Notes: generated by a model from the letters alone, not told the origin. A stretch of DNA of 64,000 nucleotides from Candidatus Dormiibacterota bacterium (GCA_963768105.1 CAVYGR010000003.1:331848-395847); one strand, 5' to 3'; shown: positions 54,627 through 64,000, counted from the first letter of the stretch. Program-made: numbers and translations.

Positions 54627-54700
54627 CGGGGAGTAGCTCAGATGGTTAGAGTACTGGTCTGGGGGACCAGGGGTCGCAGGTTCGAGTCCTGTCTCCCCGA
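54627..54700 (+). tRNA. tRNA-Pro (anticodon GGG)
   Basis: Hand-folded cloverleaf. Acceptor CGGGGAG/CTCCCCG, D arm GCTC..GAGT, anticodon stem CTGGT/ACCAG with loop CTGGGGG, T arm GCAGG-TTCGAGT-CCTGT, discriminator A. No encoded CCA. Confidence 0.9.
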
Positions 54701-54824
54701 CGGACGCGCAAGTTGATCTCAGTGCAGGGATTTCCAGTGCCATCCATTTGGCTCAATCCTGCGGGGACTAGCCCTCATCTTCGGATTGATGACTTTGCCA
54801 GCAAAACGTATCATACTTTCCAGT

Positions 54825-55823
54825 ATGAGCACCACGATCGATGGACACCTGAAGCCGCTGCGGCAGCGCGCTCCCGCCAGCCCGCCGCCGACCAGCAGGA
54901 GAGTCTCCATCGACCGCTGTGTCGACCTCATGGCGACGCGCTATCAGTGGGCCGACACCACCCGAGTCAACGCGCGCGACTACCTCGCCCGTGGTCGTTT
55001 CCTCGCCTTCTGCAATGCCCGGGGCATCGAGACCGTCGACCAGCTCAGCAATGAGGCGGTGCTCGACTTCATCGGTGATGTCCGCGACCGCGTGGGTGTC
55101 AGCCGCAACACTTTGCGCCGCTACCGCAACTACCTCCGGCGGCTTGCTGACTTCTGTGCCACCACGCCTGGGTTCGAGAATCCCTACTTCACCTCCAGCG
55201 CCGTGCCGAATGCTCCGAAGGAACCGCGGCGAAGGCGCTCCGACGCGCTGACCCACAGCGAAGAGCAGGCCCTGGTCGCCGCCCTCGTCGGACATCGCCG
55301 TGACAGTCTGATCGTCCGCGTGCTGTTGGCATGCGGCCTGCGCGTGAGCGAGCTCTGCGCGCTCTGCGTGGATGACGTGAAACTCACGGCTCGGCCGCCG
55401 CGCATACTCGTGTCCAAGGGACACCGTGACATGACCAAGAGTGGCGTCGATCGCCAGGTGACCTTCCGACAGCCCTACGCTCGGGAACTGGTCCGTGACC
55501 TCGAAGCGTGGATCGACCGACACCGGCCGGCGTCGCTCCACCCCGATCTCTTTATCTCGGAACGGAGTTCTTCAGGCGAACCAATCACCGTGACCGCGGT
55601 CCAGCAGATGCTGCAGCGAGCTTCGCTGCGTGCCGGACTTCGACCCATCCATCCACATCTCCTTCGGCGCACGTGGGCGACGCGCCTCGCCGACGCCGGC
55701 GCCACGGTAACGGACCTCATGCAGCAGGCTGGGTGGAGCAGCATCGAGATGGTGACCGTTTACTACGCCGGGTCTGAGGAGCGCGCGATCGAGCGGGTCG
55801 CGGGTCTGCGCGTCGAAGGCTGA
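54825..55823 (+). CDS. int: tyrosine-type site-specific integrase
   Basis: C-terminal catalytic region LACGLRVSEL...HPHLLRRTWATRL...GWSSIEMVTVYY (R..HxxR..Y). Start could be 54786, 54789 or 54825. Confidence 0.9.
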   Translation: MSTTIDGHLKPLRQRAPASPPPTSRRVSIDRCVDLMATRYQWADTTRVNARDYLARGRFLAFCNARGIETVDQLSNEAVLDFIGDVRDRVGVSRNTLRRYRNYLRRLADFCATTPGFENPYFTSSAVPNAPKEPRRRRSDALTHSEEQALVAALVGHRRDSLIVRVLLACGLRVSELCALCVDDVKLTARPPRILVSKGHRDMTKSGVDRQVTFRQPYARELVRDLEAWIDRHRPASLHPDLFISERSSSGEPITVTAVQQMLQRASLRAGLRPIHPHLLRRTWATRLADAGATVTDLMQQAGWSSIEMVTVYYAGSEERAIERVAGLRVEG

Positions 55824-55846
55824 TCGCGCGTTGGGTTCGCCGACCG

Positions 55847-56131
55847 TTATCCGTCGGTCAACGCAAACCCGACATCTAGGGTTGGCTGCACGTTCGCGAG
55901 CGCCTCGAGGAGGAGTCGAGCGGTGCGTAGCCGCACCGGCTTGCCGTGCAGGGCGTTGTACGACGTTCCACGACTGACGCCGGCTGCGTCGGCTAGGGCT
56001 TCGGCGGTCAGCCCTCGAGCGAGCATTGCTGCACGAAGGTGCCTGGTGTTGAACGACTGACCGACCCCGTCCCAGATGCGTCGCGGCTCTCGCTCTTGCG
56101 AGGGACTCGAACTTTCGACAGAGGCTGGCAT
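55847..56131 (-). CDS. XRE-family helix-turn-helix regulator
   Basis: LRAAMLARGLTAEALADAAGVSRGTSYNALHG is an HTH_3-like segment. The conserved 24-nt motif lies 35 nt upstream. Confidence 0.78.
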   Translation of the reverse strand: MPASVESSSPSQEREPRRIWDGVGQSFNTRHLRAAMLARGLTAEALADAAGVSRGTSYNALHGKPVRLRTARLLLEALANVQPTLDVGFALTDG

Positions 56132-56165
56132 TGGAGCGCTGATAGGGAATGAGTTTATCCGGTTT

Positions 56166-56189
56166 GTGCTTACGCAGCGCTTACACTTC
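56166..56189. promoter_or_regulatory. copy 1 of a conserved 24-nt element motif (GTGCTTACGCAGCGCTTACACTTC)
   Basis: 18/24 identical to copy 2. Contains GCTTAC twice, 11 nt apart. Upstream of the XRE gene. Confidence 0.45.
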
Positions 56190-56201
56190 GCCGAAAGGCC
56201 A

Positions 56202-56669
56202 TCACCGTCGCAGTGTCTGCTCGCACCTCGTCGTCGCGGTCACGTCAAGCGTGATCACGTCGAGGGGTGGCGCGTCACGATGCGTGCTCAGACACCGCTG
56301 AGCGATGTGTCGAGCGGATTCTGTGTTGACTCTGTGCAGGGCCTCACTCCATCGGATTGCCGAGCTCGGGTCGGTGGCCAGATCGGTGCGGAGGGCAACG
56401 TGCCAGCGACGGAGCGACTGCATCTCGAACACCAGCCCTTCGTGGCGATACCAGCAGCTCGGCCAACGCTCGGAGAGGTCGAACGCCATCGCCACCCAGT
56501 TCACCCAGGCTGCGAGTGAGGCCAGCTCGACGCTCTCCTGGTCGCCATACGATGGCGGAACGATCGCGTCCGCGACAACGGACGCGGCGGAGTGCTCGGC
56601 TGCCTTGAGCAGTCGGTCTCGCGCCTCGGCCTCGGACGTGGTGAGAGGACGCTCACGTTCGCCCGTCAC
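56202..56669 (-). CDS. DUF4913-like conjugative-element protein
   Basis: The Trp/Cys pattern LAAWVNWV...ERWPSCWYRHEGLVFEMQSLRRWHVAL resembles the recalled DUF4913 signature. GTG start at 56669. Confidence 0.55.
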   Translation of the reverse strand: MTGERERPLTTSEAEARDRLLKAAEHSAASVVADAIVPPSYGDQESVELASLAAWVNWVAMAFDLSERWPSCWYRHEGLVFEMQSLRRWHVALRTDLATDPSSAIRWSEALHRVNTESARHIAQRCLSTHRDAPPLDVITLDVTATTRCEQTLRR

Positions 56670-56781
56670 TCAGGCTGTCGACCAGCCATCGGCGGGCATC
56701 TGCAATGAAGCTGTCGATCCCTTCAAGGCGAAGCTCGATCGCCGCCAGCCGTCGCTCCGCCTCGTCGGCTCGCGCTGTCAT
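56653..56781 (-). CDS. candidate 42-aa coiled-coil ORF
   Basis: ATG at 56781 overlaps the stop of the upstream gene (ATGA). Translation: MTARADEAERRLAAIELRLEGIDSFIADARRWLVDSLSDGRT. Not in the ORF track. Confidence 0.25.
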   Translation of the reverse strand: MTARADEAERRLAAIELRLEGIDSFIADARRWLVDSLSDGRT

Positions 56782-57143
56782 GGGGTGAGTTCTCCGGGGG
56801 CGAGCGACGCCTCATACTCCAGCTGGGCTGCTTCGAGCATGGCGTCCACGGTTGGCGTGATGACGCCAGCAGTCGTTCTGCTCTCGACCATCTTGCGCAC
56901 GTCGGCCGCCTTGGCCTGACCCACATCGTCCGCGGCGCGCCGGATCAACGCATGTGCCGCGTGCTCGGAGACGCCCATGTCACGCAGCCACCCCTCGAGG
57001 CGACGACCCTCTCGCTCAACGAACTGGTGGTCGATCTCCAATGTCGCATCCACCCAGGTCGCGTCCTGAGGAAAATCAGGTACGCCGAGCATCTCGAGCA
57101 GGGCTCGTTGCGCGTCGGTCGCGCGGCGCTTCGAGGTTGGCAT
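56778..57143 (-). CDS. hypothetical element protein
   Basis: Protein-like sequence from ATG 57143 (or 57176): MPTSKRRATDAQRALLEMLGVPDFPQDATWVDATLEIDHQFVERE... It overlaps the relaxase 3' tail. Confidence 0.45.
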   Translation of the reverse strand: MPTSKRRATDAQRALLEMLGVPDFPQDATWVDATLEIDHQFVEREGRRLEGWLRDMGVSEHAAHALIRRAADDVGQAKAADVRKMVESRTTAGVITPTVDAMLEAAQLEYEASLAPGELTP

Positions 57144-59721
57144 GGCCGGCCGTACGGTCACGGTCTGCCTGCTCATATCGATCGGGATAGTCGAGCGCCG
57201 ACTCCTTCTCCTCGCTGCGGCTCCAGGAGTGCACGGTTCGTTCCTCTGCGCTTGGAGTGGGCTCCTTCCAGTGCATGATCCCGAGCGGGTCTCGCTCACG
57301 TGGCGTCGCCACCTCGTAGTGATGCGTGGCGAGGGTGGCCCTCGACATCGCCGTATACGTCCACTCGCGGCTGGCGCCATCCGAACCCACCACCATCGCG
57401 ATGTCCGCGGTCATGCCCTGGGCCTTATGGACGGTGAGGGCGTAGCCGCGGTCGAGAGCGTCGTATTGCCTGGTATCGATGGTCACCTGACCGTGGTCCG
57501 GACGCTCGAGGGTGAGCGTGCCCCGTTCAGGATCGACGCTGGTGACGACGCCACGGGTGCCGTTGCGTACCCCGGCGTGACGATCGTTGGTCAGGCAGAC
57601 GATCCGGTCGCCCGCCTGATAGTCCTTGTCTCTCACGCTCAGCGCCGGTCCGTGCACGCGTCCGTCCTCCACGGCCCTGGCACGGGCGAGCTCGTTGAGA
57701 GTCTCCACCTCGTCCCGGCGGCGGGCGAGCATGATCGCGTCGAGGCCGCTGGCGCTCAGAGCGCTGTGATGCGCGACCACCTCCGCCCGACGCTCCGGTG
57801 CCGACGGTGCAATGTGGACCCGGTCGTGTCGCATGTACTCGCGGTACGCCGCGCGCGCTTCGGCGTCGCGCAGGAGTGCGAGCGTCGCCCGTTCCCACGG
57901 ATCGACCTGGCGGATGTTCTCGGTGAGCTCGACCTTGCCGATGCGCTCGCCAAGGGTGCGCAATGGCGCCCCGGCCTCAATGGGCTGCAGCTGTTTGGGG
58001 TCGCCGACCAGCACCAGCTTGGCGTCGTCCCGCGCCGAGAGCGAGACCAGCTCGGCGAGCTGGCGGTCGCCGAGCATCCCGGCCTCGTCCACGACGAGCA
58101 CACCCCCAAAGGGGAGGTGGTCCATCTGCAGTTCGTTGAGCATCCCCGCCACCGTCCACGACGGGATGGCCGATCCCTCCTCGAGCCCCTGGGCCGCCTT
58201 GCCGGCCAGCGCACAGCCGACCACCTGAATGCCGCTCGCCTGCAGGGCTTCGCGGCACGCCTCCAGCGCATACGTCTTGCCGACCCCCGCCGCGCCCTCG
58301 ATGACCACGACGCCGGCGGACGTGCGGCAGACGGCATCGACCATCGTCCGCTGATCGCGGGTCAGCGTCGGCCGCGATGCAACGGCCGCCGCGACGTGCG
58401 CATCGCTCGCCACACCGACGTCGGCGTGTGCCCGCTCCTGGGCGGTGCTGAGCATCCGCTCCTCGAGGAGGAGCATCTCCGGCGTGGTGTACCGGAGGTC
58501 GCGGCCGGACTCGATCCAACGCGTGATCGTGTCGCCCTCCACCTCGCCGTCGTGCGCGGTGGGGAGCAGCGCCACCACCGCGTCGCGGTCGGCCAGGATG
58601 GCGTCGGCCGTCGCCTCGATGCGACTCCGGCTCATGCCCAGGGGTGCGTGCGCGGCGATGCCGCGGATCAGGTCGCGGCGCGTGAAGGTTGCCGATTGGG
58701 CGGTGAGTCCGTGGACACCGAGGATCTCGATGGGATCGCGCACGTCGAGCTGGCGCGGCAGCAGAGCATCGGGTTCGCGGTGCATCAGGTCGCGCATGCT
58801 CGCGCTGTCGAGTCCGACGCTGCCCGCCCGCTCACGCCATCGTGCGAAGAGATCCTCGGTGGCAGCGATCTCGTGCTTGCTCTCCCGGGTGTCGAGCGTG
58901 GCCACCTCCCGGCCGCTGGCCGACTCGATGGCCATCGCCCTCGCCGCGGCGTCGATCTGCTGGGACCGCCGCGAGAACTCGCGGCGCTGCGCCTCCGTGA
59001 TCCCGACGATGGCGAAGTACCCCTTGCCGTCGACCACGGTCGAGATCCCCAGTTCTCGCACGAGGCGGTCGCGCCACTCCGCCTGTGCGATCGCGCCGGC
59101 CGCGGCAGCGTGGCGGTACACGGGCTCGCTGTACAGCTGCCCCCAGGTGCCGTCGGGCCGCTGCGCCCAGTTGGGCACCGTCAGGTGGGTGTGCAGCTGT
59201 GGATCGACCGTGACAGTGCCGGTGGCCGGATCGGTCACGGGACGCGCGGTGCGGTGCACGAACTCGGCCATCACCAGGCGGGCGCGCACCGGTTCCGCAC
59301 GCTTGCTCTCGGGGTTGAACTGCCGCGCCCAGCCGGCGTGCGCCTGGAGGTACTCGGCGGCAGCGCGCACGCCCTCGTCGTGGATGCGCAGGATGGTCGC
59401 GCGAGTGTGGTCGTCGCCGAGCGCGTAGAGGATGCTCACGTCCTTGGGTGCGGACACGGCGACGTCGAACGCGACCACGTGCTGGCGCGACCAGTGGCGT
59501 CCCAGATCCTCCGCGGTGGTCGGGTGCTTGCCGCTCAGGACCGCGGCGAAGTCGGTGTCGGTGACCTCGCCGCGCAGCCCAAGCGCCTCCGCCCCGAGGC
59601 CCCGCCAGCGGCCCGGCGACTCGCCGCGGGCGGTGAAGTACTCGAGCTGCTGATCGGCCACGGCCTCGCGCAGGTAGCGAACCGCCTGCTCGACGCTGGT
59701 GAGTTTGCCGATGGAGATCAC
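57076..59721 (-). CDS. MobF-family relaxase fused to a RecD-like helicase (TraA/TrwC type)
   Basis: GTG at 59721 with GGAGGC SD. N-terminal relaxase region (YLREAVADQQLEYF, FDVAVSAPKDVS, DPQLHTHLTVPN). C-terminal helicase (EGAAGVGKTY, VVDEAGML, VGDPKQLQP, HKAQG). Confidence 0.9.
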   Translation of the reverse strand: MISIGKLTSVEQAVRYLREAVADQQLEYFTARGESPGRWRGLGAEALGLRGEVTDTDFAAVLSGKHPTTAEDLGRHWSRQHVVAFDVAVSAPKDVSILYALGDDHTRATILRIHDEGVRAAAEYLQAHAGWARQFNPESKRAEPVRARLVMAEFVHRTARPVTDPATGTVTVDPQLHTHLTVPNWAQRPDGTWGQLYSEPVYRHAAAAGAIAQAEWRDRLVRELGISTVVDGKGYFAIVGITEAQRREFSRRSQQIDAAARAMAIESASGREVATLDTRESKHEIAATEDLFARWRERAGSVGLDSASMRDLMHREPDALLPRQLDVRDPIEILGVHGLTAQSATFTRRDLIRGIAAHAPLGMSRSRIEATADAILADRDAVVALLPTAHDGEVEGDTITRWIESGRDLRYTTPEMLLLEERMLSTAQERAHADVGVASDAHVAAAVASRPTLTRDQRTMVDAVCRTSAGVVVIEGAAGVGKTYALEACREALQASGIQVVGCALAGKAAQGLEEGSAIPSWTVAGMLNELQMDHLPFGGVLVVDEAGMLGDRQLAELVSLSARDDAKLVLVGDPKQLQPIEAGAPLRTLGERIGKVELTENIRQVDPWERATLALLRDAEARAAYREYMRHDRVHIAPSAPERRAEVVAHHSALSASGLDAIMLARRRDEVETLNELARARAVEDGRVHGPALSVRDKDYQAGDRIVCLTNDRHAGVRNGTRGVVTSVDPERGTLTLERPDHGQVTIDTRQYDALDRGYALTVHKAQGMTADIAMVVGSDGASREWTYTAMSRATLATHHYEVATPRERDPLGIMHWKEPTPSAEERTVHSWSRSEEKESALDYPDRYEQADRDRTAGHANLEAPRDRRATSPARDARRT

Positions 59722-59742
59722 GCCTCCGAGCGTACTGGTAAA

Positions 59743-59766
59743 GCGCTCACAGATCGCTTACACTTT
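59743..59766. promoter_or_regulatory. copy 2 of the conserved 24-nt element motif (GCGCTCACAGATCGCTTACACTTT)
   Basis: 21/24 identical to copy 3. Lies 21 nt upstream of the relaxase GTG, in the divergent intergenic region. Confidence 0.5.
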
Positions 59767-59899
59767 GGGTCGAAAACGGGGTCAAAACCGCAGGTGAAAG
59801 TGTGTGTGAGATATAGGCGTGGGGCGGTGCTGCAGGGATGCGGAGGGCGGAGCTGATGGGAGTGTCGGGTGACGGTGAAGCTGAGGAGTTGAGGTGGTG

Positions 59900-60691
59900 A
59901 TGGCGGTGGAGATGGTGATGCCGGCGACGCTGCAGGGAGTGGCGGGGCTGGAGCGGGACTGGGAGGGCCCGGGTCCCCGCTTCGTCCAGATCACCGCGCG
60001 CTTCCACAACCGCTGTGGCGGCTGCGGCGGTGACGCGCCGGTCGGCACCCGCATCACCTACGACCGGCTCGAGCGCCATCCGTACCACCCGGGATGCGCG
60101 TGGGTTGCGATCGAGCAGCCGCCCTGGCTGATCCCCGTCCTCGCCGGCGATGCGCCGGCCCCCGGGCAGGTGATCGCGCATCCCAGCTACGGCTGGCTCG
60201 TGTGCGTGCGTGTGGCGGGGCGGACGTGGGCGGACAACGGCGTGAGCGCTGGGAGTGTCGTCGGCGTGGCCGCTCGGCGTGCGCTCCCCGAGGAGATCGA
60301 GCTGGCGCAATGGCGCGCGTACGCTGGCATGGGCGATGAGGCCGAGTGGTCCTGGCTGCAGCCCGAGCACGTGGGCGACATCGCGGAGTCCGTCGCCGAG
60401 TTCACCGGCTGGCCGATCACGCGCATCGCGCGCGAGCCCGCACAGTTCGTCGCGCCTCACCCCGGCGGGCTGTTGGTATTCGGCGAGGTCACCCCGCTCG
60501 ATGAGACCGAGCGCTGGATCGCCGCGGATCCCGAGGAGCGCTCGCTGTATCAGCGCGGCTATCGCTGGTGCCGCTGCTACTCGGTGCAGTGCCTTGCCGG
60601 CGAGGAGGGCCACGTCCACCTCGGCTCGGTCATTCCCGTGACACGCACCCAGTTCGACGCGGCCAACCAGCGGGGCTGGTCGCTGCACTAA
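59900..60691 (+). CDS. hypothetical Cys-rich protein, divergent from the relaxase
   Basis: ORF 59894-60691. An ATG at 59900 follows GAGGAG/GAGGTGG. RFHNRCGGCGG...HPYHPGCAW suggests a zinc site. No family recognised. Confidence 0.55.
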   Translation: MAVEMVMPATLQGVAGLERDWEGPGPRFVQITARFHNRCGGCGGDAPVGTRITYDRLERHPYHPGCAWVAIEQPPWLIPVLAGDAPAPGQVIAHPSYGWLVCVRVAGRTWADNGVSAGSVVGVAARRALPEEIELAQWRAYAGMGDEAEWSWLQPEHVGDIAESVAEFTGWPITRIAREPAQFVAPHPGGLLVFGEVTPLDETERWIAADPEERSLYQRGYRWCRCYSVQCLAGEEGHVHLGSVIPVTRTQFDAANQRGWSLH

Positions 60692-60746
60692 CCGCCCGTG
60701 TGTCCCGGGTGGGATGCGTCGTCAGGGGCGCGGCGTGTGCTGACGT

Positions 60747-61066
60747 CGCGGAGTCCGCGACGCTCGCGGGAAGCGCGAGCTCCGCGACAGTGCATCAATG
60801 CGCGGATCTCGCGAGGTACGCAAGATGCGCGATGTAGGCGATGGCAGCGGCACGCGCGAGACACGCGAGATGCGCGAGACGCGCGAGACATGCGTGATTG
60901 GCGGTGTCCGCAAGATCTGCTGAACGCGCGCGGTCCGCGAACCACGCGACACTCGCGAACGATGCGACATTCGCGAACGACGCGAGATGCGCGGAGTTCG
61001 CACCGTTGAGTCGATGCGCGCGACGAGCACCCGGCGCGGAACACGCGGGACGGGCTGCAGGCGCGA
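60747..61066. repeat. about 36 phase-locked tandem 9-bp repeats (nnCGCGAnn); candidate centromere/iterons
   Basis: Hand count: 21 of 36 consecutive 9-nt registers carry exact CGCG[A/G], and 9 more are within one mismatch. Example: cgcgcgaga cacgcgaga tgcgcgaga cgcgcgaga catgcgtga (60853-60897). Confidence 0.85.
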
Positions 61067-61157
61067 CATCAGCAGTGTGCGAACGATGCCCTCGACGCGC
61101 ACTTCGGCGATCCGGCGACCCATGTCCGGCCAGCGCGCAGCCGCGCGGCAGCGCGGG

Positions 61158-61505
61158 TCAGATCGTGTGGTCTGTGGGGTCCTGGGGCTTGGTGCCCAGC
61201 GCCCCGACGGGACGTCGGAGGCTCGCCTTGCCGGCGCGTGCCGGGAATGGCTGCCCGCGCTCGTGCTCCAGGTCATCGACCGCCGCAGCCAGCGCCTTGG
61301 TCGCGAGAGCGGTCAACGTCAGCCCCGGAGTCCAGTACACGGCGTTGCGGGCGCGTTCGAGTACCTCGGGGTCGAGCGACACGCCGACCGTGATCGCCCG
61401 CGCGGAACGCGGCACTTCCTGGTGCGCCGCCGGCCCTGTGGAGGAAGGTGGGAACACCGCAGCGAGGGGGTCGTCCCCCAGCGTGCTGCTACGCCGCGGG
61501 CGCAT
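61158..61505 (-). CDS. small partition-associated DNA-binding protein (RHH/ParG-like by resemblance)
   Basis: 115 aa, immediately downstream of and overlapping parA. ITVGVSLDPEVLERARNAVYWTPGLTLTALATKALAAAVDDLEHERGQPFP resembles recalled actinobacterial ParA-partner proteins. Confidence 0.55.
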   Translation of the reverse strand: MRPRRSSTLGDDPLAAVFPPSSTGPAAHQEVPRSARAITVGVSLDPEVLERARNAVYWTPGLTLTALATKALAAAVDDLEHERGQPFPARAGKASLRRPVGALGTKPQDPTDHTI

Positions 61506-62262
61506 GGCGCACCTCCTGCGCGATCACCTCGCAGGCTAGGCTGCGATAGTCGGCGGCGCCGCTGCAGCGCGGGTCGTACTGGGTGATGGGCTGCCCGAAC
61601 GACGGACACTCTGCGAGGCGCACGTTCTCGCGGATGACCGTGCTGCAGACCAGGTCGCCGAAGCGTCCGCGCAGGCGCTCCACCACCTCGGGACCATGCC
61701 GGGTGCGGGCGTCGACCCGGCACGCCACGATGCCGCTGACGCGCAGCCGCGGGTTGACGCGCTCACGGGCGGCCTCGACGCCGCGCAGCAGCTGCACCAG
61801 GCCGGCCATCGCCATGACGTGTGCCTCAACCGGGATGAACAGCTCCTCGACGCTGGCGAGGGCGTTGGCGGTGAGCGCGCCGAGCGCCGGCGGACAGTCG
61901 ACCACCAGGTAGTCCCAGCGGTCGGGGAGGTCGCCGATGAGCTGGGCGAGCCGCCCCTCCCCGGCGCGTATCTCGGCCAGCCTGCGCTCGGCGCCCAGGA
62001 GCCACATCGACGACGGCACGATGTCGAGCCCGAGGGTGCCGGTGTGGTGGACGGCATCGGACAGCCGCGCTCCACCGAGGAGGGCGTCGAGCAGCGTGCG
62101 CGATTCCGTGGGGGCGGCCACCCACGCCGAGGCGGACGCCTGAGGATCGAGGTCGATCAGGAGGACGCGCCGTCCGGTCTCGGCCAGCGCGGCGCTGAGG
62201 CTGACGGCGGTGGTGGTCTTGCCGGAGCCGCCCTTGTGATTGACGGTGGCGATGGTGCGCAT
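61489..62262 (-). CDS. parA: ParA/Soj-type partition ATPase
   Basis: Deviant Walker A NHKGGSGKTT, LLIDLDPQ, VVDCPP. Confidence 0.92.
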   Translation of the reverse strand: MRTIATVNHKGGSGKTTTAVSLSAALAETGRRVLLIDLDPQASASAWVAAPTESRTLLDALLGGARLSDAVHHTGTLGLDIVPSSMWLLGAERRLAEIRAGEGRLAQLIGDLPDRWDYLVVDCPPALGALTANALASVEELFIPVEAHVMAMAGLVQLLRGVEAARERVNPRLRVSGIVACRVDARTRHGPEVVERLRGRFGDLVCSTVIRENVRLAECPSFGQPITQYDPRCSGAADYRSLACEVIAQEVRHAPAA

Positions 62263-62291
62263 GGCGGCGATGCCTCCCAGATCGTCGGCCT

Positions 62292-62350
62292 CGCGAATCC
62301 CGCGAGAGTCGCGAACATCGCGGGATCCGCGGTGTCGCGAGGTTCAGCGA
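62292..62350. repeat. 5-7 copies of the same 9-bp CGCGA repeat upstream of parA (candidate operator)
   Basis: CGCGA at 62292, 62301 and 62310; CGCGG at 62319 and 62328 (all 9-nt steps); then CGCGA at 62336 and AGCGA at 62346. Confidence 0.7.
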
Positions 62351-62366
62351 CCACGATAGCGTCCGC

Positions 62367-62390
62367 GCGCTCACAGAGCGCTTACATTTC
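62367..62390. promoter_or_regulatory. copy 3 of the conserved 24-nt element motif (GCGCTCACAGAGCGCTTACATTTC)
   Basis: Lies between parA (104 nt away) and the SSB-like gene (36 nt away). Confidence 0.5.
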
Positions 62391-62426
62391 TATCCGGCAC
62401 GCGCCGTGCTCGGCTAGGCTGAGTCG

Positions 62427-63050
62427 GTGAGTGTCAATGCCGTGTGTCTCATCGGCTTGGTGGCTGTCCGTCCGACGTGGGACCAGGAGTTGTCGTTGGC
62501 ATCAGTGCTTGTCGTCACCGCTGGAGGCGATGGAGCGTTCCGCGAGCGCCATCGTGTTGTCGTCAAGCGGTCGATCACAGAGGTGGCGCTGGCGCTCGGC
62601 GTGGGCCAGCAAATCTTCGTGACCGGCACCGTGCAACGCGACCACAGGAACCGCGTGATCGTGGTGGCACGAGAGTTGTGGCCGATCGGGGACGTGCCGG
62701 GTGGGACGGCGGTCCAGCGCCTCGGTGGGAACACATGCGTCACCTCGCGAGCACCAGCGAGCAGGGCACTGGCGTCGCGTCTCGATCGGCGGTCCTCGAG
62801 AACGCCTGGTCTGGGTGCGGACGACCACCGTCGGGCGCGATCGCTGAGGGTAGGCCCCGTTTCCGGGTGCACCGTTCGGCCGCGCCGTCAGCGAGACGAT
62901 CGATGGGATCTGCGGTCGGTGCTTGCGGCATCGACGTCGTGGCGGTGGAGGATGGGATTGTCGCGGTTCAGTTCCTCATCCAGCCCCGCGTCGAGGCATT
63001 CTCGGCAGAAGAACCGGCTGCTGCGCACCCCATGGCAGGCGATGCACTGA
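62427..63050 (+). CDS. SSB-like OB-fold protein; only the first ~95 codons look genuine, 3' end uncertain
   Basis: VNAVCLIGLVAVRPTW....ASVLVVT....HRVVVKRSITEVALALGVGQQIFVTGTVQRD fits the SSB OB-fold pattern. The remaining ORF is low complexity and overlaps the convergent zinc-ribbon gene. Confidence 0.45.
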   Translation: MSVNAVCLIGLVAVRPTWDQELSLASVLVVTAGGDGAFRERHRVVVKRSITEVALALGVGQQIFVTGTVQRDHRNRVIVVARELWPIGDVPGGTAVQRLGGNTCVTSRAPASRALASRLDRRSSRTPGLGADDHRRARSLRVGPVSGCTVRPRRQRDDRWDLRSVLAASTSWRWRMGLSRFSSSSSPASRHSRQKNRLLRTPWQAMH

Positions 63051-63097
63051 TTCCACGACTGGTCAGAGCGGTCGTCGGGGATGATCGTTGCAGTCAT
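62888..63097 (-). CDS. small zinc-ribbon protein
   Basis: ATG at 63097 is preceded by a strong SD (AAGGAGA) 6 nt upstream. Translation MTATIIPDDRSDQSWNQCIACHG...FFCRECL carries CxxC pairs. Confidence 0.6.
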   Translation of the reverse strand: MTATIIPDDRSDQSWNQCIACHGVRSSRFFCRECLDAGLDEELNRDNPILHRHDVDAASTDRRSHRSSR

Positions 63098-63350
63098 CTC
63101 GGGTCTCCTTCGAGCGGTTGATGCATGCAAGCTCCAGGCCCGGACGCCGCTGCGCTGTCAGGGGCGCGGTTCGTGCGTCAGCTCGAACCCGGTGCGCAGC
63201 ACGTCACCCTTGACAGAAGGAGCAGCGGCGGGAGGGACCCTGCTGTCATGCGTCGGTCGGTCGGAGGAGCCGAGACGCGATCGCACGGCGTTCCCCGGCG
63301 CGTTGCCCGCGAGCGTGCTGGCGTCTCGCTTCGATGCGCAGGCGGGCGCC

Positions 63351-63806
63351 TCACTCCCAGCCCTCCTCGGAGCGGAAGGAGAAGTGCTCGGTGTCGGTCA
63401 CGATGATGTGATCCAACAGCGGGAGACCGACGATCTGGGCGGCGTTGCGCAGCGCCGCGGTGACGACACGATCCGCACGCGATGGTGTCGCGTCGGCAGA
63501 TGGATGGTTGTGGCAGACGATCAGCCCCGCCGCGTTCGCGCAGAGCGCCGGCACCAGCACGTCGCGGGGTTGCAGGCGGGCAGCATTGATCGTGCCTCGC
63601 GCCACCTCGGCGTAGCCGCTGATGCGATTCCGAGCGTTGACGAAGAGCACCAGGATGCACTCGGTGATCTCCTCGCCGATGATGTGCCGGGCGATGTCGA
63701 CAGCCTCACGCGGACTGTTGACCGGCGCGTGGTTGGGATAGGTCGCATCAGCGTCGCGAACGACCGAGAACGAGTAGCGGCGGGTGGTGACCCGAACTGC
63801 GGGCAT
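63351..63806 (-). CDS. radC: RadC-like JAB-domain protein
   Basis: ATG at 63806 with GGAGAG SD. The VCHNHPSADATPSRAD JAMM-like motif is typical of RadC/DUF2466. Confidence 0.86.
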   Translation of the reverse strand: MPAVRVTTRRYSFSVVRDADATYPNHAPVNSPREAVDIARHIIGEEITECILVLFVNARNRISGYAEVARGTINAARLQPRDVLVPALCANAAGLIVCHNHPSADATPSRADRVVTAALRNAAQIVGLPLLDHIIVTDTEHFSFRSEEGWE

Positions 63807-64000
63807 GGTGGCTCTCCGTGGGTGTGGATTCGACGCCCACGGGCCGGCAGGTGTCGCCGGCGCGGAAGAGGCCCGAGCCGCAGGCGAGCTCGTCTTGGGC
63901 CTTGCAGCGCCAAGAGGCGGCATCTGCCACGGTGGCGGAGGTGAATCCACACGGAGAGTCCAGGTGTGCGGTCAGTGGCTCCGACCAGCGATTGCGTAAG

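Follow-up and report, generated by a model that had tools for sequence, protein, structure and literature searches.

The 64,000-nt stretch of DNA analysed here (the window; C3:331848-395847) comes from a 2.68-Mb, 9-contig metagenome-assembled genome (MAG), 69.7% complete, of Candidatus Dormibacterota, an abundant uncultured phylum of soil and permafrost. Its right-hand part carries an element inserted at a proline tRNA gene, and this element is our subject. We denote the genome G000 and the genomes compared with it by further numbers of the same kind. The tRNA-Pro(GGG) gene lies on the plus strand at 54627..54701 and is intact after the insertion; ARAGORN finds no other tRNA in the window and no other tRNA-Pro(GGG) in the assembly. 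An initial annotation of the region ended the gene at 54700, one position short of the ARAGORN end. Reading frames to the right of the tRNA were chosen by codon-position GC and then searched against Pfam and NCBIfam, and the profile matches agree with the order given in that annotation: a tyrosine integrase, an XRE-family regulator, a MobF relaxase–helicase, ParA and RadC. The integrase gene is on the plus strand and the other four are on the minus strand.

The insertion can be delimited to the base. Directly 3′ of the tRNA, the 125 nt at 54702-54826 have a GC content of 49.6%, as opposed to ~68% for the window, which agrees with the AT-richer tract remarked on earlier. We aligned four att sequences: the attL of G000 and the attL, the attR and an unoccupied site of its relative G007. 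All four have a 60-bp core in common and diverge directly after it. Of this core as it stands in the window (attL, plus strand, 54657..54716), 44 nt belong to the tRNA, reaching from the anticodon stem to its 3′ end, and 16 nt to the sequence downstream; its last bases are ...CAAGTTGA. The flanks of the three G007 sequences are swapped exactly as predicted for site-specific integration. Past the core, the AT-richer element-side arm of attL (P′ arm, plus strand, 54717..54824), which starts with TCTCAGTGCAGGGATTTCC..., is nearly identical to the G007 attL arm, and the boundary of the element is accordingly set at 54716/54717. With 79% identity, a similar arm is found on the right side of one junction (c6) in another relative, G018, where it precedes an 88%-identical integrase. 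The arm in the window probably contains the promoter of the integrase gene and is also the probable location of candidate arm sites for the enzyme.

The integrase gene begins 108–124 nt from the att core. From the ATG at 54825 it encodes 332 residues (54825..55823, plus strand), and the longest open reading frame (ORF) starts at a TTG at 54786. Its match to PF00589 (E=4e-29) spans profile positions 3–169 of 172 and thus a full-length catalytic domain. Reading of the sequence identifies R173, H278-x-x-R281, W304 and Y313/314, with a tentative assignment of the lysine to K205. With its full length and catalytic motifs kept, the enzyme is not degraded. Homologues that are 97–99% identical adjoin tRNA-Pro in G004, G007 and G015, and a scan of species-representative genomes with the integrase gave matches only in MAGs of Candidatus Dormibacterota. 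These come from palsa sites, which we take to be Stordalen Mire, and from a series labelled MFD, presumably the Danish Microflora Danica survey, and include one complete 3.34-Mb chromosome; G015 we take to be an Illumina-era palsa MAG.

The largest gene of the element, on the minus strand at 57076..59721, encodes an 881-residue TrwC-type MobF relaxase fused to a superfamily 1B (SF1B) helicase. It matches TrwC (PF08751, E=2e-70) and AAA_30 (E=2e-50), scores 216 bits against the NCBIfam MobF model NF041492 (cut-off 100) and matches solved TraI/TrwC structures in the PDB with E=1e-21 to 3e-32. The hallmarks of MOBF relaxases are present, namely a TrwC-type HUH domain, paired tyrosines, a histidine triad and a C-terminal SF1B helicase; by eye we assign Y16, Y28, H156, H177-T-H179 and a Walker A motif, GAAGVGKT, at 476. 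The nearest plasmid MobF proteins in PLSDB, all from Actinomycetota, are only 28–31% identical. Upstream of the relaxase gene, the divergent intergenic region at 59722..59893 contains two 11-nt direct repeats, a 7-nt inverted repeat and one copy of an operator-like motif described below. From its position beside the MobF gene, this region is a candidate for the origin of transfer (oriT) as well as for the relaxase promoter.

A putative partition locus lies further right. The ParA-type Walker ATPase (257 aa, minus strand, 61489..62262) matches AAA_31 (E=8e-45) and CbiA (E=1e-23), lacks an N-terminal helix-turn-helix (HTH) and scores 105 bits against the NCBIfam ParA_partition model, below the equivalog cut-off of 180. 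Its stop codon is overlapped by a minus-strand gene for a 115-aa protein with a coding GC pattern (61158..61505), which is a candidate for the centromere-binding partner of ParA. Beyond this small gene, downstream of parA, ~38 phased 9-bp units of the form CGCGrnnnn extend over 60729..61070 (plus strand). Matches to CGCG[AG] fall into one 9-nt phase in 22 of 24 cases (60729-61062), and TRF reports sub-arrays of period 9/18. Upstream of parA there are five more CGCG[AG] units, in a separate 9-nt phase that they share; there, a short 9-bp repeat block (62292-62336) and another copy of the operator-like motif together occupy 62292..62390 (plus strand). The array is a candidate centromere with parS-like iterons, and the arrangement of ParA, partner and iterated array resembles a type Ib partition locus. 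We also note that contigs of G004 (C4) and G007 (C4) end inside the homologous 9-bp array, so that the array breaks assemblies too. Given ParA, the small downstream gene and the array, it is plausible that the par genes imply extrachromosomal persistence, as proposed in the initial annotation. The ParA pair and the long centromere-like array, and the fact that the closest PLSDB relaxases are plasmid MobF genes, might even suggest a plasmid-like episome, i.e. a conjugative plasmid with an integrase that is integrated only occasionally. We regard such an episome as very unlikely: every copy seen is on a chromosomal contig, beside tRNA-Pro (G000, G004, G007, G015 and G016) or tRNA-Leu (G007:C4), no replication initiator was identified, and partition systems are known in bona fide integrative and conjugative elements (ICEs) such as those of the SXT/R391 family, which carry active partition (PMC4489591).

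The operator-like motif, GCTyAC-N5-GCTTAC, recurs across these modules. Copy 1 (GCTTAC-N5-GCTTAC, 56166..56189, plus strand) is located 35 nt upstream of the start of the XRE gene, copy 2 (59743-59766) upstream of the relaxase gene and copy 3 (62367-62390, plus strand) upstream of parA. In the whole 2.68-Mb genome the motif occurs only 4 times, 3 of them being these copies, which suggests one operator and one regulon. The XRE-family HTH regulator itself (94 aa, minus strand, 55847..56131) matches HTH_31, HTH_3 and HTH_26 with E-values close to the Pfam cut-offs (3e-5 to 2e-4); it is a candidate repressor of the element and perhaps controls the putative operator regulon. The integrase–XRE module joins the relaxase backbone at ~56189-56250, just to the right of operator copy 1. 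Relatives break collinearity at query positions 1472-1534, with insertions of 1.9 kb and 6.6 kb at this joint. In G007:C4:1-9400 the same backbone, with a relaxase of 98% amino acid identity and the gene for a 265-aa protein, is combined with a different tyrosine integrase (SAM_3 and Int_M domains), the gene for which overlaps tRNA-Leu(CAG) with its 3′ end. This looks like a swap of the integration module inside one ICE family.

Comparison with relatives supports recent movement of the element. The segment from 54717 to 64000 is collinear with G007:C1 (97–98% identity), G015:C19 (94–95%) and G004:C4 (95–98%), and also with G016 and G006. The der–tRNA flank beside it is only 84–89% identical between MAGs of the same genus, and a 16-kb core stretch is 70–78% identical between relatives. 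With the element at 94–98% identity and the core at ~70–89%, the element is younger than the divergence of the species, and the pattern points to recent horizontal transfer between species. Relaxase homologues occur in 13 of 19 genomes of the genus and were not found in the other six, and a sample of 200 other genomes, drawn from 123 genera, contains no close homologue (E <= 1e-250). The ICE family is confined to a single genus of Candidatus Dormibacterota. An integrase beside a tRNA gene is typical of prophages too, and a block of conserved chromosomal genes could likewise lie next to a tRNA. Both interpretations have a negligible probability in our view, and we reject the prophage on gene content, absences in the genus and the unoccupied site: no phage structural or packaging genes are seen in a gene set of relaxase, ParA, RadC and ArdC. 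The patchy presence of the relaxase, the existence of an unoccupied site and an identity above that of the core equally mean that the region is not conserved core, which the initial annotation had considered as a way in which its interpretation could fail.

Two questions are decisive for the nature of the element: (i) whether it has a second end and (ii) what lies between the ends. Both are answered most clearly by G007. There, the tRNA is followed by the same integrase, and a partial copy of the tRNA lies ~90.6 kb downstream, 224 bp from the end of the contig, so that tRNA-Pro and the 60-bp direct repeat bound a unit of ~90.6 kb. The attR repeat sought by the initial annotation is thus found at a plausible distance in a copy that is 97–98% identical to that of the window. 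The empty tRNA-Pro site for which related genomes were to be compared was also found, once: on contig C3 of G007, the left flank and an intact tRNA-Pro are followed by the sequence found after the distal repeat.

The ~90.6-kb unit of G007 encodes a full-length ArdC, a ParB-like protein, a VirB4-like ATPase of the AAA_10/HerA type, a 532-aa T2SSE ATPase (TadA/VirB11-like) and a type IV coupling protein (T4CP). The T4CP gene, that of the TadA/CpaF-size ATPase and a gene for a TadE-like pseudopilin, which heads the cluster, are co-directional, and the VirB4 gene lies ~30 kb upstream in the same unit. The orthologous VirB4 gene of G015 (C14) is intact, and the C-terminal 360 residues of its product match the VirB4 ATPase domain of 4AG5 (E=2e-20); the G007 gene is 96–98% identical to it and split across two frames. 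An intact T4CP with T4SS-DNA_transf, TraG-D_C and TrwB domains is encoded in G015 ~10 kb from an att copy. In passing, this T4CP gene adjoins defence-like cargo (KwaB-like, DUF6079 and SMC-like ATPase genes), and the cargo seen in the right-hand part of the G015 ICE (C14:28000-48000 and 76000-85599) comprises KwaB-like, DUF6079 (E=1e-288), a 993-aa AAA_21/SMC-like ATPase and DUF5677.

By the usual genomic definition, an ICE combines an integrase, a relaxase, VirB4 and T4CP in a single unit between att sites; the family, with its MobF relaxase, fits this definition. We therefore have high confidence that the window holds an integrated element belonging to an ICE family, and we consider it likely that what is visible is the left end of an ICE inserted in tRNA-Pro(GGG). 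The initial annotation had left the choice between an ICE and an integrative and mobilizable element (IME); its assignment of the locus to the attL side is supported, and for the family the att-bounded copy of the relative decides in favour of an ICE. An actinomycete ICE of the FtsK/TraB type (AICE) can be rejected, with a MobF relaxase here and VirB4 and T4CP in relatives; among the ORFs scanned there was no match to FtsK_SpoIIIE, for which no dedicated search was made.

Several observations weigh against a complete ICE in G000 itself, and some of them affect the relative as well. No ICE-type VirB4 or T4CP gene is present in the window, in the rest of the contig or in the assembly. The earlier statement that no type IV secretion system (T4SS) is in view consequently holds well beyond the window, and the suggested scan of the remaining sequence for VirB4/VirD4 genes succeeded in the att-bounded copy of G007 and found none on this contig. 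The element runs into the contig end at window coordinate 65424, 1.4 kb beyond the window, with at least 10.7 kb of element DNA before the break. In this last 1.4 kb there are an ArdC-N gene and one small ORF; the ArdC-N ORF has 180 aa, whereas its G007 counterpart, in which ArdC-N is joined to an M78-like domain, is 288 aa long. At window coordinates 64124-64991 the ArdC-N ORF is overlapped by an ORF in another frame (64124-64831), which suggests shortening by a frameshift, either real or an assembly error. The G007 relaxase, VirB4 and T4CP genes are each split across frames, which may reflect long-read assembly error or real decay. Finally, the unoccupied site of G007 is not a product of excision within one clone, an interpretation that we reject: between the occupied and unoccupied alleles there are 11 substitutions over the 1.57 kb of flank that they share, so that the unoccupied site derives from a co-occurring sister strain and records a difference in presence between strains.

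These observations mean that the copy in G000 could be truncated or a mobilizable derivative. Such an IME or remnant would have kept the integrase, oriT/relaxase and par and would have lost, or never had, the mating-pore genes, and it would need another T4SS, for example that of a co-resident ICE or a chromosomal T2SSE/T4CP/VirB4-like cluster. The genus does have a syntenic chromosomal cluster of T4CP, T2SSE and AAA_10 ATPase genes that could act in trans, and the relaxase backbone is found in several copies and contexts per genome, as modular reshuffling would produce. Against these points stand the collinearity of 54717-64000 with the left end of the G007 ICE at 97–98% identity, the incompleteness of the MAG (completeness ~70%; binning often misses mobile elements) and the fact that no relative has a short att-bounded version ending just after ArdC. 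On balance, we judge an IME or truncated remnant to be improbable, although it is the most serious of the alternatives, and we retain the left end of an ICE as the preferred interpretation.

Two loci elsewhere in the assembly deserve mention in connection with transfer genes. The sole VirB4-like match is a 29–31% identical paralogue on contig C2. In C2:345500-354800 this VirB4-like ORF is ~7 kb from tRNA-Gln(CTG) (353695-353769), which is accompanied by a 30%-identical tyrosine recombinase (354044-354799), and the locus is possibly another integrated element, or what remains of one. The second is contig C5 (36.9 kb), which carries genes for a T2SSE ATPase, a T2SSF-like protein and a split T4CP. 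We rejected it as the missing part of the T4SS, as it is core-syntenic and far from tRNA-Pro: the cluster is syntenic with core genes (ThiC, GlnA and Dxs) at 70–78% identity in all relatives tested. More fully, the chromosomal cluster comprises the T2SSE ATPase, a T2SSF-like protein, a VirD4-type coupling protein (split across two frames in G000) and a ~880–940-aa AAA_10 (VirB4-like) ATPase beside SDR, ThiC, GlnA and Dxs genes. It is found at G000 C5:1-9900, G018:C1:339500-350300, G003:C1:1736000-1747000 and G004:C7:432000-445000, with 70–76% identity, as for core genes, and genus-wide synteny. This would be an unusual, vertically kept T4SS-like cluster, which could act in trans on mobilizable elements.

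The right end of the element in G000 leads to a more complex picture. No exact 12–40-nt repeat of the tRNA 3′ end exists elsewhere in the genome, and no overlap of contig ends joins C3 to another contig. The only other copy of the att core, detected with blastn-short, is on contig C7, 5.5 kb from its end: 47 bp match the core with 2 mismatches and do not form a tRNA gene. Reversing C7 brings this copy into direct orientation. The arm on its left shares 66% identity with the attR arm of G007, compared with ~50% for unrelated flanks. The DNA before the repeat is unrelated cargo (TetR, MarR, YceI, DUF1905 and DinB genes), no close homologue of the S9 peptidase that follows it is found in 18 relatives, and the next 14 kb form a non-syntenic mosaic. 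These features, too, tell against a simple ICE with its attR at this position. With a non-syntenic flank, the repeat cannot be accepted as the outer attR beside core chromosome; it is attR-type but probably internal. Most probably the tRNA-Pro gene is followed by a composite island, and the repeat marks where another of its units ends on the right.

Islands of this kind are present in relatives as tandem-accretion arrays, with several direct att copies and most units without a recombinase, and the C7 repeat means that G000 has at least one further junction. The array in the complete chromosome of G018 consists of the tRNA and 11 partial copies of its 3′ part within ~150 kb (C1:2177203-2330560). 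In each of the 11 junctions the core is preceded by a conserved left arm of ~120 bp, in which TTCCAAC-type motifs are reiterated. On the right, about three classes of sequence recur, and the segments that the junctions delimit are 1.5–83 kb long. This succession of arm, core and arm makes the junctions attP-like, as tandem accretion predicts. Only junction c6 is followed by an integrase of the family described here. A 136-bp fragment of the 5′ end of the integrase gene is also seen at 2324444-2324579.

The attR arm of the ICE in G007 is 70–84% identical to the arms of the array junctions, and the only recombinase family found beside the tRNA-Pro att site in the genus is that of the ICE integrase. 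It is conceivable, though we would put it forward only tentatively, that the ICE integrase acts in trans as the recombinase of these long, mostly integrase-less cassette arrays at tRNA-Pro(GGG). If this were the case, ICE and array would form an integron-like platform for the capture of genes and their spread between species. The ICE would dock beside cassettes and, by using one att copy or another, leave the chromosome with them; a T4SS with Tad-like parts would then carry them out of the cell.

For the ICE itself, a conventional cycle can be proposed. The tyrosine integrase would bring about recombination between the 60-bp cores of the circular element and of the chromosome, rebuilding the tRNA at attL and leaving a partial tRNA copy at attR. 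The part of the element seen here would be its integration, regulation, DNA-processing and maintenance end, with int, XRE, MobF and a probable oriT, and the ParA pair with its array, followed by RadC and, just beyond the window, by the ArdC-N anti-restriction gene. The motif shared by the upstream regions of XRE, relaxase and parA would place these genes in a single regulon. Once the element is excised, the relaxase would be expected to cut one strand at oriT, and DNA would leave the cell in single-stranded form through the T4SS.

The remaining genes of the visible part are less distinctive. The relaxase gene is followed, likewise on the minus strand (56202..56669), by a gene with a coding-type GC pattern for a 155-aa protein of no assigned family. 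The Cys-rich 265-aa protein (59894..60691, plus strand), also of no assigned family, has a gene that is kept with the backbone in G007:C4 and others. Two overlapping convergent ORFs occupy 62427..63097, a plus-strand ORF from 62427 and a 69-aa minus-strand ORF at 62888-63097. The RadC-like JAB-domain protein (199 aa, minus strand, 63351..63950) matches PF04002 (E=3e-35) and the NCBIfam RadC family (E=1e-35). The 155-aa, 265-aa and 115-aa proteins and the two convergent ORFs have no Pfam or NCBIfam match. Four labels in the initial annotation accordingly lack profile support: a DUF4913-like protein, a ribbon-helix-helix (RHH)-like protein, a protein resembling single-stranded-DNA-binding protein (SSB-like; the ORF from 62427) and a zinc-ribbon protein (the 69-aa ORF). 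A lower GC content at third codon positions (GC3) than in core genes, which had been reported for several of the genes, is seen for int (0.78), the 155-aa gene (0.77) and radC (0.79) relative to a core neighbour (0.88); the relaxase (0.87), the 265-aa gene (0.90) and parA (0.92) do not follow this trend.

A literature search found no description of a conjugative element in Dormibacterota, and it seems that no ICE has been described so far in this phylum. What the locus adds is a concrete ICE family: its boundaries are placed to the base, its att core is defined, a regulator–operator set can be proposed, and there is evidence of recent interspecies spread. It offers a handle on horizontal gene flow in Dormibacterota and possibly, in the form of integrase and attP, a future genetic tool, and it is a candidate for both the enzyme and the vehicle of the unusual tRNA-Pro cassette arrays in the same genus.

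Among known systems, the element is most like the T4SS-type MOBF ICEs and conjugative plasmids of monoderm bacteria (Terrabacteria), for example those of actinobacteria. The family has a tRNA-targeting tyrosine integrase, a TrwC–SF1B relaxase, a VirB4-like ATPase matching that of Thermoanaerobacter (4AG5), a VirD4-type coupling protein, and ArdC, RadC and ParB-like 'establishment' genes in common with them. It differs in its relaxase, which is so distant from the nearest plasmid MobF proteins, and in its host, an uncultured member of the Dormibacterota. The arrangement of the transfer genes in G007 is also unusual, with the T4CP clustered with a T2SSE ATPase and a TadE-like pseudopilin and VirB4 far upstream. 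VirB11-type ATPases are reported to be rare outside the type T mating-pair formation class (MPF-T; PMC4027160). The Tad-like genes of the G007 cluster may be part of the mating apparatus.

Possession of its own partition system, implying a maintained extrachromosomal phase, is a feature that the element would share with SXT/R391, the active partition of which was described by Carraro et al. (2015). The system found there, SrpMRC, is reportedly of the actin type. Here, by contrast, ParA is small and of the Walker type, its candidate partner has 115 aa and the iterated repeats are 9 bp long, a layout that is type Ib-like as judged from sequence. The arrays at tRNA-Pro in turn recall the tandem accretion of ICEs, IMEs and cis-mobilizable elements (CIMEs) at one att site around ICESt1/ICESt3 of Streptococcus thermophilus (PMC5812530, PMC5704250) and the ssrA-specific island arrays at a small-RNA gene in Dehalococcoides (PMC3146451). 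In all of these, direct att repeats derive from the 3′ end of a small-RNA gene, units are often without a recombinase, and integration modules and cargo are phylogenetically discordant. The arrays described here differ in their extent, at least 11 junctions over ~150 kb in the single chromosome of G018, in the conserved ~120-bp arm that each junction keeps next to the core and in the location of the tyrosine integrase on a ~90-kb MobF/VirB4 ICE. The ICE is proposed to work in the same way as classical ICEs that target tRNA genes; what is unfamiliar is the host, not the mechanism.

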